A stretch of DNA of 64,000 nucleotides, taken from assembly GCA_012965045.1 (NCBI GenBank), contig DTSZ01000001.1, positions 348,937 to 412,936 of the forward strand, in the 5' to 3' direction. The position numbers and the translations under genes were made by a program. The notes beneath the pieces were generated by a model that had not been told where the DNA came from, did not search any database, and was given only the letters and a program-made list of their open reading frames with translations. This DNA is from Candidatus Saccharimonadota bacterium. GTDB taxonomy: Bacteria; Patescibacteriota; Saccharimonadia; Saccharimonadales; DTSZ01. Positions 5,800 to 63,516 of this stretch are shown piece by piece (position 1 is the stretch's first letter; each line of letters opens with the position of its first letter).

Positions 5800-6545
5800 A
5801 GAAGATGGTCTAGGTAGAGCTGACGAGTCGTCGGTTGCATCTAGATTATCTTCTTAACCTGGTGAACTATTCTGTTGCCGCAGAATGAGACGTCATTAGT
5901 TTGATGGCTCCGACTCTTGGCACGCAGAGTTGTAGTTCACCTTTGCTGCGGAATAGATACCAACCACAAATGATCAAGATGGTCAGAGGTTGTGCATTCT
6001 ACCTGTTTGACGCTAGGATTTCGGGTCAACACAGGACGATGAGACCGTCTCATCCCGCAGCTTAAATTTGGTGATTGGCATTCTGCCAGAAAACAGCAAC
6101 CCCTCACGTGCTGCACTCTCAGCACGCGCTGTTTTTGACTGAATCATGCGTAACCGCACGATTTGGCGTCACCCGGCTGGACTCAGCGAACAGATTTAGC
6201 ATCTCCCCCCCATGCTTCTTCTGTGCTGAGTTCAGCTAAACGTCTGGACCAGCTCGGCCACCCACCCCCTCTACCCGGGTTGGCCCAGACGATCGTCCTC
6301 CAGGGCATACGTTGATGTCGTCGCACATCGTGCCGCACTCGTACTGTCCTGGAGGACGACCAAACTTCCCACGGGGAGTCAGCTACCGCCGAGAGGGGGC
6401 CCTCGCGCGCTGCTGACTCCCCGCTGGGATGCAAAGATCAAGGAAATTTGGGGAAGAGGCCGCGGTTTTTTGGCAGCGAGAGGTTTTGAATGGCATTTGC
6501 TATTCAATCAAGATATCCACTCCCCTAAGACCACAAAAACCGCCG
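5800..6545 (-). ncRNA. candidate large structured RNA, family unknown
   Basis: 906-bp gap between pfkB and fba in a window where gaps are usually under 100 bp. Its only ORFs (62 and 83 aa) translate to Arg/Trp-rich nonsense. Local GC is high (42 of 60 nt in 6241-6300). At least 9 helices of 7-13 bp are present. Three helices gain a G-U pair only when read on the minus strand. Boundaries are approximate. Confidence 0.4.
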
Positions 6546-15530: not shown

Positions 15531-15576
15531 TATACACTTTTTGACGATCATAAAAGTTTGTATAGTTCGCCCGCGG
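15531..15576. repeat. copy A (degenerate) of a 36-nt palindromic intergenic element plus GC-rich right flank
   Basis: TATACACTTTTTGACGATCATAAAAGTTTGTATAG followed by TTCGCCCGCGG. It aligns with copies at 44733-44780 and 56444-56490. The arms match in 13 of 18 positions. Confidence 0.7.
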
Positions 15577-33213: not shown

Positions 33214-33288
33214 TGGGGCGTGGCCAAATGGTAAGGCAGCGGTTTCTGGTACCGAAGATTGTAGGTTCAAGTCCTACCGCCCCAGCCA
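33214..33288 (+). tRNA. tRNA-Gln (anticodon CUG), CCA encoded
   Basis: Cloverleaf by hand. Acceptor TGGGGCG/CGCCCCA, anticodon arm GCGGT-TTCTGGT-ACCGA, T arm GTAGG-TTCAAGT-CCTAC, discriminator G plus CCA. Closely resembles E. coli tRNA-Gln. Confidence 0.9.
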
Positions 33289-33551
33289 ATAAAAACGAGT
33301 CCATTTTTGGGCTCATTTTTATTGATTTGGCATGATGGACTTGAACCTAGTTAGGTGAGAAATGACTAAATGTCATTTCGCAAGACCCGGAAGCCCGGAT
33401 TGGCTTGGCAGCCAACCGAGTTGAGGAGGGGTGAAACATGCTGGCAGCATGTCGCAAGGAAATCTACTCTTGAAAACTGGTTTTTCAAAGATGTAGTTTC
33501 GGGATCGCAGGATGTGATGCGGAATTTTTACAAAGTAAAAATATCTGTGAC

Positions 33552-41981: not shown

Positions 41982-42014
41982 AAAAAACCGACTTGCTTCC
42001 AAGTCGGTTTTTTT
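41982..42014. terminator. bidirectional rho-independent terminator
   Basis: 8-bp stem CCGACTTG/CAAGTCGG (41988-41995 / 42000-42007) with loop CTTC. An A6 run lies before it and a T7 run after it. It sits between the convergent helicase and RRM genes. Confidence 0.75.
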
Positions 42015-43749: not shown

Positions 43750-44487
43750 ATGACTCAACTAATTATTTCATTCGTTGCTGGAGTTTTGACTGTACTTGCC
43801 CCGTGCGTTCTGCCATTGCTGCCAGTTATTTTAGGCGGTTCGGTTACTGCAGCTAGCGAACCGTCAAAACCCAATCTTAAACGACCACTGGTTATCACTG
43901 GTAGTTTAGTACTTTCGATTGTTGCATTTAGCATATTGCTTCGCTCAACAGTGAGCTCGTTTAGTATTTCTGACCAAACGCTGCAAATTTTCTCTGGCAC
44001 AGTTGTTGTTTTATTTGGTCTTAGTTTTGCCGTTCCTAAATTATGGGAATGGGTAGCTCTAAAAACTAAGTTCTACCAAAAATCGACTGGGTTTTTTAGT
44101 AAATCTACTGCTAAGAAGAGTAAGTACAGTGACGCTATTTTAGGGCTTAGCCTGGGGCCAGTTTTTACAAGCTGCAGTCCAACCTATTTTTTGATCGTTG
44201 GGCCACTTATTGCCAACAACTTCGCAGAAGGGTTACTAAACCTTATTGTGTATAGCATTGGCTTGGCTGGAACTCTGCTGCTAATTGCTATTGGCGGACA
44301 AAAAATTGCCAACAAGCTTGGCTGGCTGACAAATCCTAACGGTAAATTCCCGAAAATACTGGGTGTAATTTTTATTATTGTCGGATTAATGATTCTATTC
44401 GGTATCGATAAAGAAATCCAAGAATATATCCTTGAACAGGGATGGTACGATCCAATTGGTAATTTTGAACAAGGTTTAGGTATATAG
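43750..44487 (+). CDS. ccdA: cytochrome c biogenesis/thiol-disulfide transporter CcdA (DsbD-family)
   Basis: 245 aa. LAPCVLPLLPVILG and a second Cys region FTSCSPTYFL, with six TM helices. Confidence 0.85.
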   Translation: MTQLIISFVAGVLTVLAPCVLPLLPVILGGSVTAASEPSKPNLKRPLVITGSLVLSIVAFSILLRSTVSSFSISDQTLQIFSGTVVVLFGLSFAVPKLWEWVALKTKFYQKSTGFFSKSTAKKSKYSDAILGLSLGPVFTSCSPTYFLIVGPLIANNFAEGLLNLIVYSIGLAGTLLLIAIGGQKIANKLGWLTNPNGKFPKILGVIFIIVGLMILFGIDKEIQEYILEQGWYDPIGNFEQGLGI

Positions 44488-44640
44488 CCGTATTGTAAGC
44501 TCACCAAAATTGCCGCTGTGGTCTTACCGTAGTACCACAGGCGATGATGCTGGCTGGTAGCTGTGACTAAAGCGCTGTTTAATTTGTTGCTGGCTCTTGC
44601 TAGTCCAATTCGTTAGCCTTCCGCCTAGCCCAACAACCCA

Positions 44641-44704
44641 CCCTCACGCACTCAAACCCTCACACATTCACACCCTCACACGTTCATACCTTCACTCCAG
44701 CCTA
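44641..44704 (+). repeat. four tandem 16-nt C-rich repeats (CCCTCACACRTTCAYA-like)
   Basis: Units start at 44641, 44657, 44673 and 44689: ccctcacgcactcaaa / ccctcacacattcaca / ccctcacacgttcata / ccttcactccagccta. Confidence 0.8.
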
Positions 44705-44732
44705 TCCACAAGTAAACCTCCCAACCTCATAC

Positions 44733-44768
44733 CTATACACAATTTGACGATCGTCAAATTGTGTATAG
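44733..44768. repeat. copy B (perfect) of the 36-nt palindromic intergenic element
   Basis: CTATACACAATTTGACGATCGTCAAATTGTGTATAG is a perfect 18+18 palindrome. It is followed by TGCTGCCGCGAGCAC and a T-rich run (44786-44803). Confidence 0.85.
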
Positions 44769-44824
44769 TGCTGCCGCGAGCACTGGCTGTTTTTTGGTTT
44801 TTGTTATTTTTCTGCTCACTTCAA

Positions 44825-45112
44825 TCAGTTTGTTCGCGGCCAAACCAATACGCCCTGTATGCTGTTCCGATCAACAATTGCATTGTGGTGGCTGTCCGCA
44901 TTGTCGCCTTCGAGCCAAATTTTATCGCCATGATCTTCTATCCTGACTATTCGCTTTACCACATCAACGTTTTTGTGTCGTGCTAATGCGATCGAATTCA
45001 GTCTAAAGGTTTTCTTTCTAAAGACCAGAATTTGGCCTTCGCGGAGTGTTGGTTCCATGCTGTGACCGACTACTCGGCGCACATATAGTCTGGGTAATTT
45101 CATAGTGCTCAT
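44825..45112 (-). CDS. sodX: S26/S24-type serine peptidase, Ni-SOD maturation protease (SodX-like)
   Basis: 95 aa with VVGHSMEPTL (catalytic Ser motif) and VVKRIV (Lys). It lies immediately downstream of sodN. Confidence 0.8.
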   Translation of the reverse strand: MSTMKLPRLYVRRVVGHSMEPTLREGQILVFRKKTFRLNSIALARHKNVDVVKRIVRIEDHGDKIWLEGDNADSHHNAIVDRNSIQGVLVWPRTN

Positions 45113-55642: not shown

Positions 55643-55686
55643 ATTCAGACTATTGTATTTTTCATACTTTATTGTATTATATCCTA

Positions 55687-56322
55687 ATGCCATCGACTAC
55701 TGTAACCACACCACAAGAACAGCTTATTATTGGGTCACCTGAACGTTTCTTCGTCGATCCATACACTGTTGTCGAAATAGGTCACGGCGAACATCCAATT
55801 TGGATAAATAATCCAAGCTTTTACGAAACTACCGCTAAATATATAGGGGTAGAGTCTTGGTTGCGCTGCACTAAAGAAATTGGTGATTTATTAGTTAAAG
55901 AGGCGCTTCAGCATCCTGCGGCTAAAGTGGGATTCCAAAAGATAAATGCTTCTCTAGAAGTCTATGACCCTACAACAGAACTTCCTTCAGGGTTAGCTCA
56001 CGAGGTGGTGCTTAGTAATGTTTTTACAGATCCACAAATCGCAGATAATTCTGAGCACACACAGCGGCTACTGCAAGAGGTGTCGCGTTTACTTGACCCA
56101 GATACTGGGATAGTTGTACTTCGAGAAACGCTAACACCAGAAATTATGAATATTGATGAATTTAGTTTATTTGCAGATAAAGCTGGATTAGAAGTAGCGG
56201 GGATAGAAAAAAATGGTGGAGAATTTTGGCTTGAATTAGAGAGACTTTACTGTGCTTCAGGGTACGGAGGGAAGAGAAATAGTTTCTACATGTTTTTACA
56301 AAACTCCAAGCAGCTCCTGTGA
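55687..56322 (+). CDS. hypothetical protein, weakly methyltransferase-like
   Basis: About 211 aa from the ATG at 55687. VVEIGHGEHP and HEVVLSNVFTDP loosely resemble class I SAM-methyltransferase motifs I and post-II, but the glycine loop is degenerate. Confidence 0.5.
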   Translation: MPSTTVTTPQEQLIIGSPERFFVDPYTVVEIGHGEHPIWINNPSFYETTAKYIGVESWLRCTKEIGDLLVKEALQHPAAKVGFQKINASLEVYDPTTELPSGLAHEVVLSNVFTDPQIADNSEHTQRLLQEVSRLLDPDTGIVVLRETLTPEIMNIDEFSLFADKAGLEVAGIEKNGGEFWLELERLYCASGYGGKRNSFYMFLQNSKQLL

Positions 56323-56443: not shown

Positions 56444-56479
56444 CTATACAGATTTTTACGATCGTCAATTTTTGTATAG
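56444..56479. repeat. copy C of the 36-nt palindromic intergenic element
   Basis: CTATACAGATTTTTACGATCGTCAATTTTTGTATAG has arms matching in 14 of 18 positions. It is followed by TAGCTGCGCGA, like copy B. Upstream TTCACACGAACA and CCTCACAC echo the C-rich units of copy B. Confidence 0.75.
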
Positions 56480-56615
56480 TAGCTGCGCGATTGTGGTTTG
56501 TTGATTTGGATTAATCGCGATGGAAAGTCTACTGCGTACGAATGATTATAGGGCTGTGATCTAGTAATTAACTAAATTTTACAGCTTATTTATATAAAGT
56601 GGTTATACTTAAAAC

Positions 56616-57320
56616 ATGGTTCTACTCTTACAGTTTAGAAGTGACGCTGCTGGTTGGCATGAACTTAAATGCTTTTGTGACGCACTGGAACTTCCTTACC
56701 ACCAAATTCAAACCGTGAACCTGCTCAACCCAAACACTGACTGGCAATTAGTACGAAAATTAGCTGCTCAATCAGACAAAATTATAATTGGCGGCAGCGG
56801 TGAAACAGGGTACGAGCATCCTGACCATGACCACTATTTTGCTATGCTCGACTCGTTCCGCCCGTTTTTAGCCGAACAAGTTGACAAAGGAAAACACATT
56901 TTTGGAGTATGCCTTGGCCATCAGATATTGGGTGACGTCTTTGGTGGCAATGTTCAACCCAGTCCCAAACACGAAGAAACTGGCACAGTTCAACTCGAAC
57001 AAAGTGCAGCAGCTCGCAATGACCCGTTATTTAGCGATCTACCAGAAACGTTTTTCGTTTCAACCGCTCATAAAACATCCGTTCTGTCTGTTCCCAACCA
57101 TGTTGAGGTGTTAGCAACTAATCACAACTCCCCGATTCAAGCTATGCGCTACAAAAACGCCTGGGGTGTTCAGTATCATCCAGAGCTCGATGATGAAAAA
57201 CTAACTTTTCGCCTAAAGCTGTACCAAAGCTATGTCCGGAACCAAATAGATGACGTAGAGCCAAAAGACTTTAGTGCTGCAAAAGAGGTGCTTAAACGCT
57301 TTATTCATCTCCCATTATAG
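56616..57320 (+). CDS. class I glutamine amidotransferase-like protein
   Basis: 234 aa with IFGVCLGHQILG (nucleophile elbow Cys) and VQYHPE (His/Glu of the triad). Confidence 0.85.
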   Translation: MVLLLQFRSDAAGWHELKCFCDALELPYHQIQTVNLLNPNTDWQLVRKLAAQSDKIIIGGSGETGYEHPDHDHYFAMLDSFRPFLAEQVDKGKHIFGVCLGHQILGDVFGGNVQPSPKHEETGTVQLEQSAAARNDPLFSDLPETFFVSTAHKTSVLSVPNHVEVLATNHNSPIQAMRYKNAWGVQYHPELDDEKLTFRLKLYQSYVRNQIDDVEPKDFSAAKEVLKRFIHLPL

Positions 57321-63342: not shown

Positions 63343-63482
63343 TACCTCTACTATAGACGCTAGCGTTTATATAATGCAAGAATACTAGGCTGCTCGCGGT
63401 TTGCCACGTAAGGGCAAGCCGCGCTCCGCCTGTTCGATGCCACACGAAAACCAAGAAATTGGTTTTCATCCTCAGCTCACAA

Positions 63483-63506
63483 TAAAAAAAGACCCAAAAT
63501 CGGGTC
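63483..63506 (-). terminator. rho-independent terminator downstream of tRNA-Leu
   Basis: On the minus strand, GACCCGATTTTGGGTC (5-bp stem, 6-nt loop) is followed by T7 (rc of 63484-63490). Confidence 0.7.
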
Positions 63507-63516
63507 ATTTCTTATT

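Follow-up and report, generated by a model that had tools for sequence, protein, structure and literature searches.

PaaX of Escherichia coli and Pseudomonas is the repressor of the phenylacetate catabolon; it controls the paa genes and binds phenylacetyl-CoA through a C-terminal effector domain. Short palindromes that recur between genes are familiar from other systems as well. REP sequences carry GTAG at the 5′ end and occur in tens to hundreds of extragenic copies, and the RAYT proteins are HUH tyrosine transposases of the IS200/IS605 type. The parS sites of ParB and the NBS sites of Noc are palindromes of 14-16 bp that are shared across phyla, are present in several copies and often lie beside the gene of the protein that binds them. 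The E. coli PaaX site is built of widely spaced inverted hexamers, TGATTC-N27-GAATCA, and PaaX represses its own promoter (PMC9493321).

Among CPR bacteria (Patescibacteria) very few regulators are recognisable, and gene control is nearly unstudied. The palindromic element described here is conserved across several CPR classes and is coupled to a very large protein family, which would place the two among the first candidate regulator-site pairs in these bacteria. Judged from sequence comparison, the palindromes are most likely the predicted cognate sites of a short PaaX-family protein, which would regulate its own gene and have additional intergenic sites (rough probability 0.55). This reading was preferred over terminators and over chance because elsewhere in the CPR bacteria the element family brackets a PaaX-like gene.

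Three copies of a palindrome in the window

The window, a 64-kb stretch of a Candidatus Saccharibacteria genome (CPR/Patescibacteria) from a hydrothermal vent, contains three copies of a 34-36 nt palindrome of the form TATACA-N4-TTT-N-ACGATC-N-T-N-AA-N4-TGTATA(G):

44733-44768, no strand: copy A, a perfect 36-nt palindrome (18+18), CTATACACAATTTGACGATCGTCAAATTGTGTATAG
56444-56479, no strand: copy B, with 14/18 pairs
about 15531-15565 (15530 in one listing), no strand: copy C, with 12/17 pairs and the core degraded to ACGATCAT

A previous sequence-only reading of this DNA had described copy A as a perfect 18+18 palindrome and copy B as matching in 14 of 18 arm positions, and both descriptions were confirmed. 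The third copy does recur as claimed, but its pairing of 13 of 18 was not reproduced: 12 of 17 positions pair, rising to 13 only with a G-T pair counted. The flanking genes bear out that all three copies are intergenic. Copy A lies between the converging genes ccdA (+ strand, ending at 44487) and sodX (- strand, ending at 44825), with sodN beyond sodX, and has no gene to serve. Copy B is placed between an unannotated ORF of 216 aa (55672-56322) and a class-I glutamine amidotransferase (GATase) gene, both on the + strand, 122 nt past the stop codon of the former and 137 nt before the ATG of the latter at 56616. Copy C is found 12 nt past the cupredoxin stop codon (15577), which leaves 79 nt between it and the ppa start (15451), both genes being on the - strand. 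Read by eye, the sequences most like promoters are TATACT, at 6 nt from the GATase ATG, and, ahead of ppa, TGCTATACT. Neither is covered by a copy: B is ~115 nt upstream of the first and C ~45 nt upstream of the second.

A search of the 64 kb for TATACA-N15-30-TGTATA returned exactly three matches, copies A, B and C, where 0.06 were expected, and for the full degenerate pattern the number expected by chance in the window was 0.00. With the flanks of the window included, the density in this genome is 3 copies per about 82 kb. Chance similarity, or a recent local duplication without function, would fit the restriction of the window to three copies, of which B and C are degenerate. It is exceedingly improbable, as close to zero copies are expected and the same element, with its boxes conserved, recurs in many unrelated CPR genomes, a cross-lineage conservation that contradicts it.

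Folded as RNA, copy A was predicted to form a strong hairpin (-21.8 kcal/mol, z = -8.0), copy B one of -11.2 kcal/mol (z = -3.3) and copy C one of -10.4 kcal/mol whichever strand is taken. A palindrome yields the same hairpin from either transcribed strand, and these folds would suit an element that acts at the RNA level: a transcribed hairpin serving as a 3′-end stabiliser, as an RNase III or other processing site, or as a terminator without a U-tract, its apex perhaps recognised by a protein. Such a role is considered distinctly unlikely. The element lacks a T-run after it (T makes up 0.38 of the downstream bases, compared with 0.35 for A upstream), the evident terminators of this genome are different (41982-42013, 33289, 63482), and Rfam returned three tRNAs only in the window, with the element in no family. 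The sequence-only reading had also offered a hairpin terminator. A generic intrinsic terminator was rejected: the element is not called in a terminator scan and has no excess of T on its downstream side, its stems are AT-rich, and its apex is conserved across phyla.

Two further candidates were discarded. GATC and CGATCG occur at about their expected frequencies in the window and give no restriction-modification signature. A sigma-70 promoter within the element would have only 14 bp from TTGACG to TATAGT, and the promoter scan calls none there.

Terminator-like palindromes of the classical, bidirectional kind, with an A-run, a GC stem and a T-run, were noted in the window at 41982-42013, 33289-33322 and 63482-63515. 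The 3′ part of the tRNA-Gln gene (33214-33288) is inversely repeated just downstream (33262-33349, 42-nt arms, 76% complementary), which may reflect an integration scar or else a terminator that overlaps the tRNA end.

The right flank and the surroundings of copy A

Four features adjoining the copies are as follows:

44769-44779, + strand: right flank of copy A, TGCTGCCGCGA, with T-N5-CGCG in register
56480-56490, + strand: right flank of copy B, with T-N5-CGCG in register
15566-15576, + strand: right flank of copy C, with T-N5-CGCG in register
44766-44795, + strand: small hairpin TAGTGCTGCCGCGAGCACTG followed by GCTGTTTTTT, terminator-like, overlapping the last 3 nt of copy A and the GC flank

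The three copies had been said to share a flank that defines their orientation. What is common to A, B and C, on the + strand only and in fixed register, is G, T, five variable bases and CGCG; the similarity is weaker than was stated. In a simulation, a run of four identical columns among three random 16-mers of the window had p ~3e-4, a post hoc value. The left flanks have nothing in common. Alignment of the copies with 80 nt on each side showed that their likeness stops ~11 nt past the palindrome, and a larger MITE-like unit was rejected. The T-N5-CGCG flank was not found in the other lineages scanned, among which L002 alone has a GC-rich flank. The GC-rich flank is lineage-specific and no property of the element family, and its significance is uncertain.

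Downstream of ccdA, a C-rich 16-nt tandem repeat, CACCCTCACACATTCA, is present in 3.6 copies at 44639-44695 (+ strand) and is predicted to be unstructured. Read along the + strand to 44795, it is followed by the copy-A hairpin and by the small hairpin with its T-run (UUUUUU in the transcript), and this last hairpin, at 44766-44795, is probably the real terminator downstream of ccdA. The segment 44639-44795 (+ strand) looks like a candidate sRNA or structured 3′UTR with CCUC-type (anti-Shine-Dalgarno-like) motifs. Copy A could then be a module of that transcript, the long hairpin between the C-rich repeat and the small hairpin with its U-run. As an account of the element this is improbable: neither the repeat nor the terminator accompanies copies B and C, their likeness to A is limited to the palindrome and 11 nt, and the family-wide link to a PaaX-like gene is independent of the copy-A context. 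Given the early point at which the three copies diverge, the suggestion that they belong to a shared sRNA gene family likewise finds no support.

The 9-mer CTATCCACA at 44702-44710, 22 nt upstream of copy A, occurs once and agrees at 8 of 9 positions with the DnaA-box consensus, TTATCCACA. This resemblance is probably due to chance.

Conservation and symmetry of the element in CPR bacteria

A scan of species-representative genomes gave 2 matches, one in a Paceibacterota MAG and one in an unclassified MAG, and a slightly looser pattern gave 68 loci in metagenome contigs, many of them from 0.1-µm-filtered Hainich groundwater. Removal of duplicates and of about 9 probable chance matches reduced the 70 loci of both scans to about 56 unique instances, most of which come from CPR bacteria of groundwater. 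A pattern search of other genomes, as proposed in the sequence-only reading, thus yielded further copies in many unrelated CPR lineages. No matches to the element pattern were found in viral contigs.

The half-site profile consists of TATACA, a variable position, a mostly A/T stretch, T at position 12 and then [C/G]ACGAT. The scan pattern forced positions 1-6, 12 and 15-19, and left positions 13-14 and the A/T bias at 8-10 unforced. Because both the outer boxes and the core were forced, their conservation among the scan matches is partly circular, and only the reverse test and the second flanking copies described below are free of this bias.

Symmetry is far commoner in these sites than binding of a dimer to duplex DNA requires. 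Perfect 34-nt palindromes make up 26 of 65 scan instances, and in 11 of the 65 the palindrome continues for 4 nt or more into flanks that are otherwise unrelated. When 77 sites were aligned without gaps, 20 of 21 mirrored column pairs had changes on both sides. The covariation score of 0.43, a statistic that does not discriminate between a DNA palindrome and an RNA stem, compared with 0.14 for shuffled alignments, was reached by 0 of 500 shuffles and collapsed when the register was slid.

These compensated stem changes would also be expected if the hairpin acts in RNA. The sense strand has 10 G-T against 5 A-C mismatches, an asymmetry that would be an RNA signature and was set aside as not significant. 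In Hainich lineages and in window copies B and C, positions 7-10 are non-complementary while the half-site boxes are kept, and several lineages, B and C included, have 3-5 mid-stem mismatches with a conserved half-site sequence. The hairpin is therefore not universally maintained, which counts against an RNA element.

Dispersal without any regulatory purpose was weighed as a further explanation. The palindromes would then be self-maintaining or domesticated repeats comparable to REPIN/RAYT systems, with the PaaX-like protein as their maintenance or mobilisation factor and with orphan copies that regulate nothing. We regard this as unlikely, though well short of negligible. Seven sites with an identical 34-mer in differing flanks were found in sample Ga0213870, and the same 34-mer is present in L019. 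The many perfect palindromes with compensated arms are in keeping with such repeats. The element was not found within the 20 kb around sodN in three other Saccharibacteria and is thus absent at the orthologous positions of these relatives. Against this, the consensus lacks GTAG, few decayed copies appeared in a relaxed scan, and an unsystematic look revealed neither target-site duplications nor polymorphic insertions. The copies are few as well, with three in about 82 kb of the present genome and mostly just the two bracketing ones in L083-L086.

A second class of element has the outer boxes TA[AT]CCA…TGG[TC]TA around the same CACGATCGTG core. It was seen in L073 (487, 1132 and 5301) and, as orphans, in L035 (8873), L051 (9624) and L021 (10312).

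The element brackets the gene of a PaaX-like protein

Five loci carry two copies 650-860 bp apart, and in 5 of 5 a gene of the same family lies between them, matching Pfam PaaX_M (PF20803) with 77-84 bits (cut-off 24). When all neighbours were clustered, the PaaX_M protein was the only strongly recurrent one, with 17 neighbour relations at 14 loci; by a rough estimate, well under one chance adjacency to such a gene would be expected. The other neighbour clusters found at more than one locus were pairs: clpB/htrA in L015 and L067, a KH-domain gene shared by L001 and L030, and a further pair from L023 and L068. Each element is located 0-65 nt from an end of the PaaX-like gene. A relaxed scan revealed a second, slightly divergent copy across the gene in L002, L019, L021, L023, L046, L053 and L073, and the usual architecture is therefore element-gene-element. 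Of two paralogous genes in L073, one stands between TATACA…TGTATA sites, the other between TA[AT]CCA…TGG[TC]TA sites.

Because the scan pattern forced the outer boxes, the association was tested in reverse with four loci (L083-L086) picked purely by protein homology to the L002 regulator. Indeed, in all four the gene has ACGATCGT-centred palindromes to its left and right. The two in L083, tcgTAGTAAAAAATTCACGATCGTGAATTTTTTACTAcga and tcgTTGCAGAAAATTCACGATCGTGAATTTTCTGCAAcga, are perfect over 40 bp; L086 has two that are perfect over 46 bp and a third, imperfect one; L084 has two imperfect palindromes; and L085 has shorter versions of roughly 24 nt. What does not vary is therefore the core (T)TCACGATCGTGA(A). 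In L083 and L086 the outer hexamers show no conservation at all, and the outer arms of the paired sites at one locus may be unlike, yet each of the paired sites in L083 and L086 is perfectly self-complementary. Compensated changes between the two sites of a locus number 3 in L083, 3 in L086 and 2 in L042.

The bracketing of a single- or low-copy cognate gene is what a REPIN/RAYT-like origin would predict. So is the occurrence of the same 34-mer with regulators that are only 33% identical (L019 and L032), and of element-gene-element units in differing contexts with regulators 83-88% identical (L043 compared with L015 and L067). On the other hand, neither Pfam nor a fold search identified the flanked gene as an HUH/Y1 transposase, and the core and TATACA arms are kept across proteins of ~30% identity, which fits an old protein-site pair better than REPs, whose evolution is fast.

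No PaaX-like ORF was detected in the window at E <= 10, nor is one listed for the ~9 kb to its left or right; among the matches listed for two regulator queries there was no homologue from this genome. A literature search returned no paper on PaaX-like proteins in CPR bacteria, on this motif or on their pairing.

The PaaX-like protein

The AlphaFold model (mean pLDDT 82) shows a winged helix followed by a ferredoxin-like (Cas2-like) domain. Its best match in the PDB is E. coli PaaX (8A39, E = 1.7e-4), with Cas2 proteins next. The sequence profile gave weak matches only, to winged-helix proteins (AspA, MarR), Cas2 and PaaX, and the NCBIfam matches to PaaX and Cas2 were partial and below the cut-offs. 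Of three regulators scanned against Pfam, L042 alone has PaaX_C; the others are about 180 aa long and have PaaX_M only. The family comprises at least 3,836 clusters at 50% identity (E <= 1e-10), its best-scoring representatives are mostly 180-200 aa, and its members are labelled 'hypothetical', 'Cas2' or 'PaaX' in their sources. RNases occur among Cas2-fold proteins, a circumstance that would favour the RNA-level role discussed above.

An origin in phage, defence or CRISPR systems was rejected. Besides the viral contigs, PHROGs gave nothing useful and PADLOC reported only weak similarity to the Cas2 domain. The elements are single and not arrayed, and the gene lists of L083-L086 contain no cas genes.

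Position relative to genes and promoters

A -10-like hexamer (TATAAT, TATAGT, TATGAT or TAGAAT) is usual 6-14 nt before the regulator ATG, and the upstream element ends 0-26 nt upstream of this hexamer. The position of the element just before the -10 suggests autoregulation at the DNA level. It would also place the upstream copy outside the transcript of the regulator gene, a further point against an RNA element.

A spacing of 6-7 nt between such a hexamer and the ATG was seen for the regulators of L002, L015, L023, L032, L043 and L067 and for the window GATase (56604-56618, TATACT), and by eye the spacer has no evident Shine-Dalgarno sequence. The PaaX-like genes may thus have leaderless or short-leader mRNAs, and the window GATase a leaderless one.

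The gene contexts of 45 sites were 30 tandem, 9 convergent and 6 divergent, with no orientation preference. Convergent cases include copy A, L071 (SLT versus PGM) and L035, the last two being well annotated. In tandem contexts the median distance was 46 nt to the upstream stop codon and 119 nt to the downstream start, and several copies lie 1-12 nt past a stop codon. Proximity to stop codons and placement between converging genes would both fit a 3′-end role in RNA, and the dispersal between unrelated genes in any orientation would equally fit a REPIN/RAYT-like repeat.

The orphan sites neighbour clpB, hrcA, htrA, trmD, pheS, gltX, gyrB, HU, murB, uppP and hisD, and further corA, rmuC, a SpoU methylase gene, a dCMP deaminase gene, ppa and the GATase gene. 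Tabulation of flanking genes and their orientation, a step suggested along with the original observation, thus left PaaX_M as the recurrent neighbour and otherwise housekeeping genes in all orientations. A coherent regulon was rejected, the neighbours being heterogeneous, functionally unrelated and variously oriented.

The PaaX-like gene is often near clpB, htrA-type protease genes or hrcA (L015, L067, L043, L083, L086), and in L083 a GC-rich ACGATCGT-centred palindrome is located at 6079, between htrA and clpB. This hints at a link of the regulator with proteostasis; the three window sites lie elsewhere.

In the Paceibacterota-like L001/L049 and L030 the element lies just downstream of a KH-domain (khpA-like) gene, with trmD 69 nt further downstream in L001 and L049. 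In the window khpA and trmD are adjacent, 29 nt apart, with no element between them.

A proposed model of the element and its protein

Of the four roles first proposed (operator, REP-like element, hairpin terminator or processing site, small-RNA family), the operator of a dimeric regulator is favoured by the genetic coupling to a PaaX-family winged-helix protein in many CPR genomes. The REP-like features are real, and the terminator and the sRNA family found no support. In the preferred reading, a protein of ~180 aa, with a winged helix at its N-terminus, a Cas2-like domain for dimerisation and, as a rule, no PaaX C-terminal effector domain, would bind as a dimer and read the central 14-16 bp, (T)T[C/G]ACGATCGT[G/C]A(A). 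The subtype of the window keeps the outer hexamers TATACA/TGTATA as well, separated by 22 bp, which recalls the E. coli PaaX site. Two sites bracket the gene of the protein itself, and the upstream one, near the -10, would mediate autoregulation. At orphan sites, such as the three in the window, the bound protein may influence transcription of the neighbouring genes or local DNA structure.

The lack of a PaaX-like gene in the window and its flanks, and of the element around sodN in the three other Saccharibacteria, weighs against this reading. Other observations run counter to a classical operator: the perfectly compensated arms exceed what a dimer on duplex DNA would need, the neighbours of orphan sites are unrelated, with 9 of 45 sites between converging genes, and copies B and C do not cover the likeliest promoters. 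The arms are self-complementary and compensated, so competence to form a hairpin or cruciform is probably required of the site. The compensated arms together with the bracketed gene mean that the site may act folded, or may behave as a domesticated repeat.

There is, then, a minority chance of something more unusual than a PaaX-family transcription factor and its operator. One such 'palindrome plus keeper' system would have the Cas2-like-domain protein recognise the ACGATCGT apex of a hairpin or cruciform, in place of a plain duplex, and maintain, copy or exploit these structures at many intergenic sites, and is offered tentatively, as an unlikely alternative. Functionally it may correspond to REPIN/RAYT while using an unrelated protein, or it may be a cruciform switch, which may be sensitive to supercoiling or temperature and tied to the clpB/htrA/hrcA neighbourhood.

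Comparison with known systems

Rho-independent terminators are likewise stable hairpins that often stand shortly past a stop codon, but the present element has AT-rich stems, no U-tract and an apex shared across phyla. Like CIRCE/HrcA and HAIR/HspR, it is a long inverted repeat found across phyla, its regulator is often beside clpB, htrA or hrcA, and a copy lies upstream of clpB/hrcA (L015, L067, L043, L083, L086); the sequence and the protein family are different, however, and most other sites, including all three window copies, are not at chaperone genes.

With parS and the Noc sites the element shares a conserved palindrome in multiple copies, often beside the gene of the binding protein, and its inner half-sites TTTCAC/GTGAAA seem to resemble the half-sites of parS, TGTTTCACGTGAAACA. 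It differs in that its protein has no ParB domain, GATC stands between the half-sites and the arms are long.

The likeness to REP/REPIN-RAYT systems is more extensive in form: short intergenic palindromes are dispersed without orientation preference, form a compensated hairpin and flank a cognate single-copy gene. To this extent the REP-like part of the earlier proposal stands; a larger MITE-like unit does not. The bracketed gene is PaaX-like here, GTAG is absent, copy number is far lower, and the sequence of the element is conserved across very distant CPR lineages.

The pairing of a PaaX-like protein with this palindrome, of which the literature search returned no description, has its kin in the PaaX-family transcription-factor/operator pairs. 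It departs from E. coli PaaX in several respects. Most of the CPR proteins are without PaaX_C, and no paa genes appear in the locus gene lists. The CPR sites have an extra invariant central palindrome, ACGATCGT, and differ in spacing and hexamer sequence, and in some CPR lineages conservation is limited to the core, and the outer arms vary from site to site. The sites stand at both ends of the gene, have compensated arms and occur as orphans by unrelated or converging genes. The similarities concern the protein, the site and its placement. Both proteins combine a winged helix with a Cas2-like central domain (Pfam PaaX_M, best fold match 8A39); the sites are similar in architecture, with inverted 6-bp repeats set far apart, TGATTC-N27-GAATCA there and TATACA-N22-TGTATA here; and PaaX represses its own promoter, and the element here abuts the gene of its own regulator.
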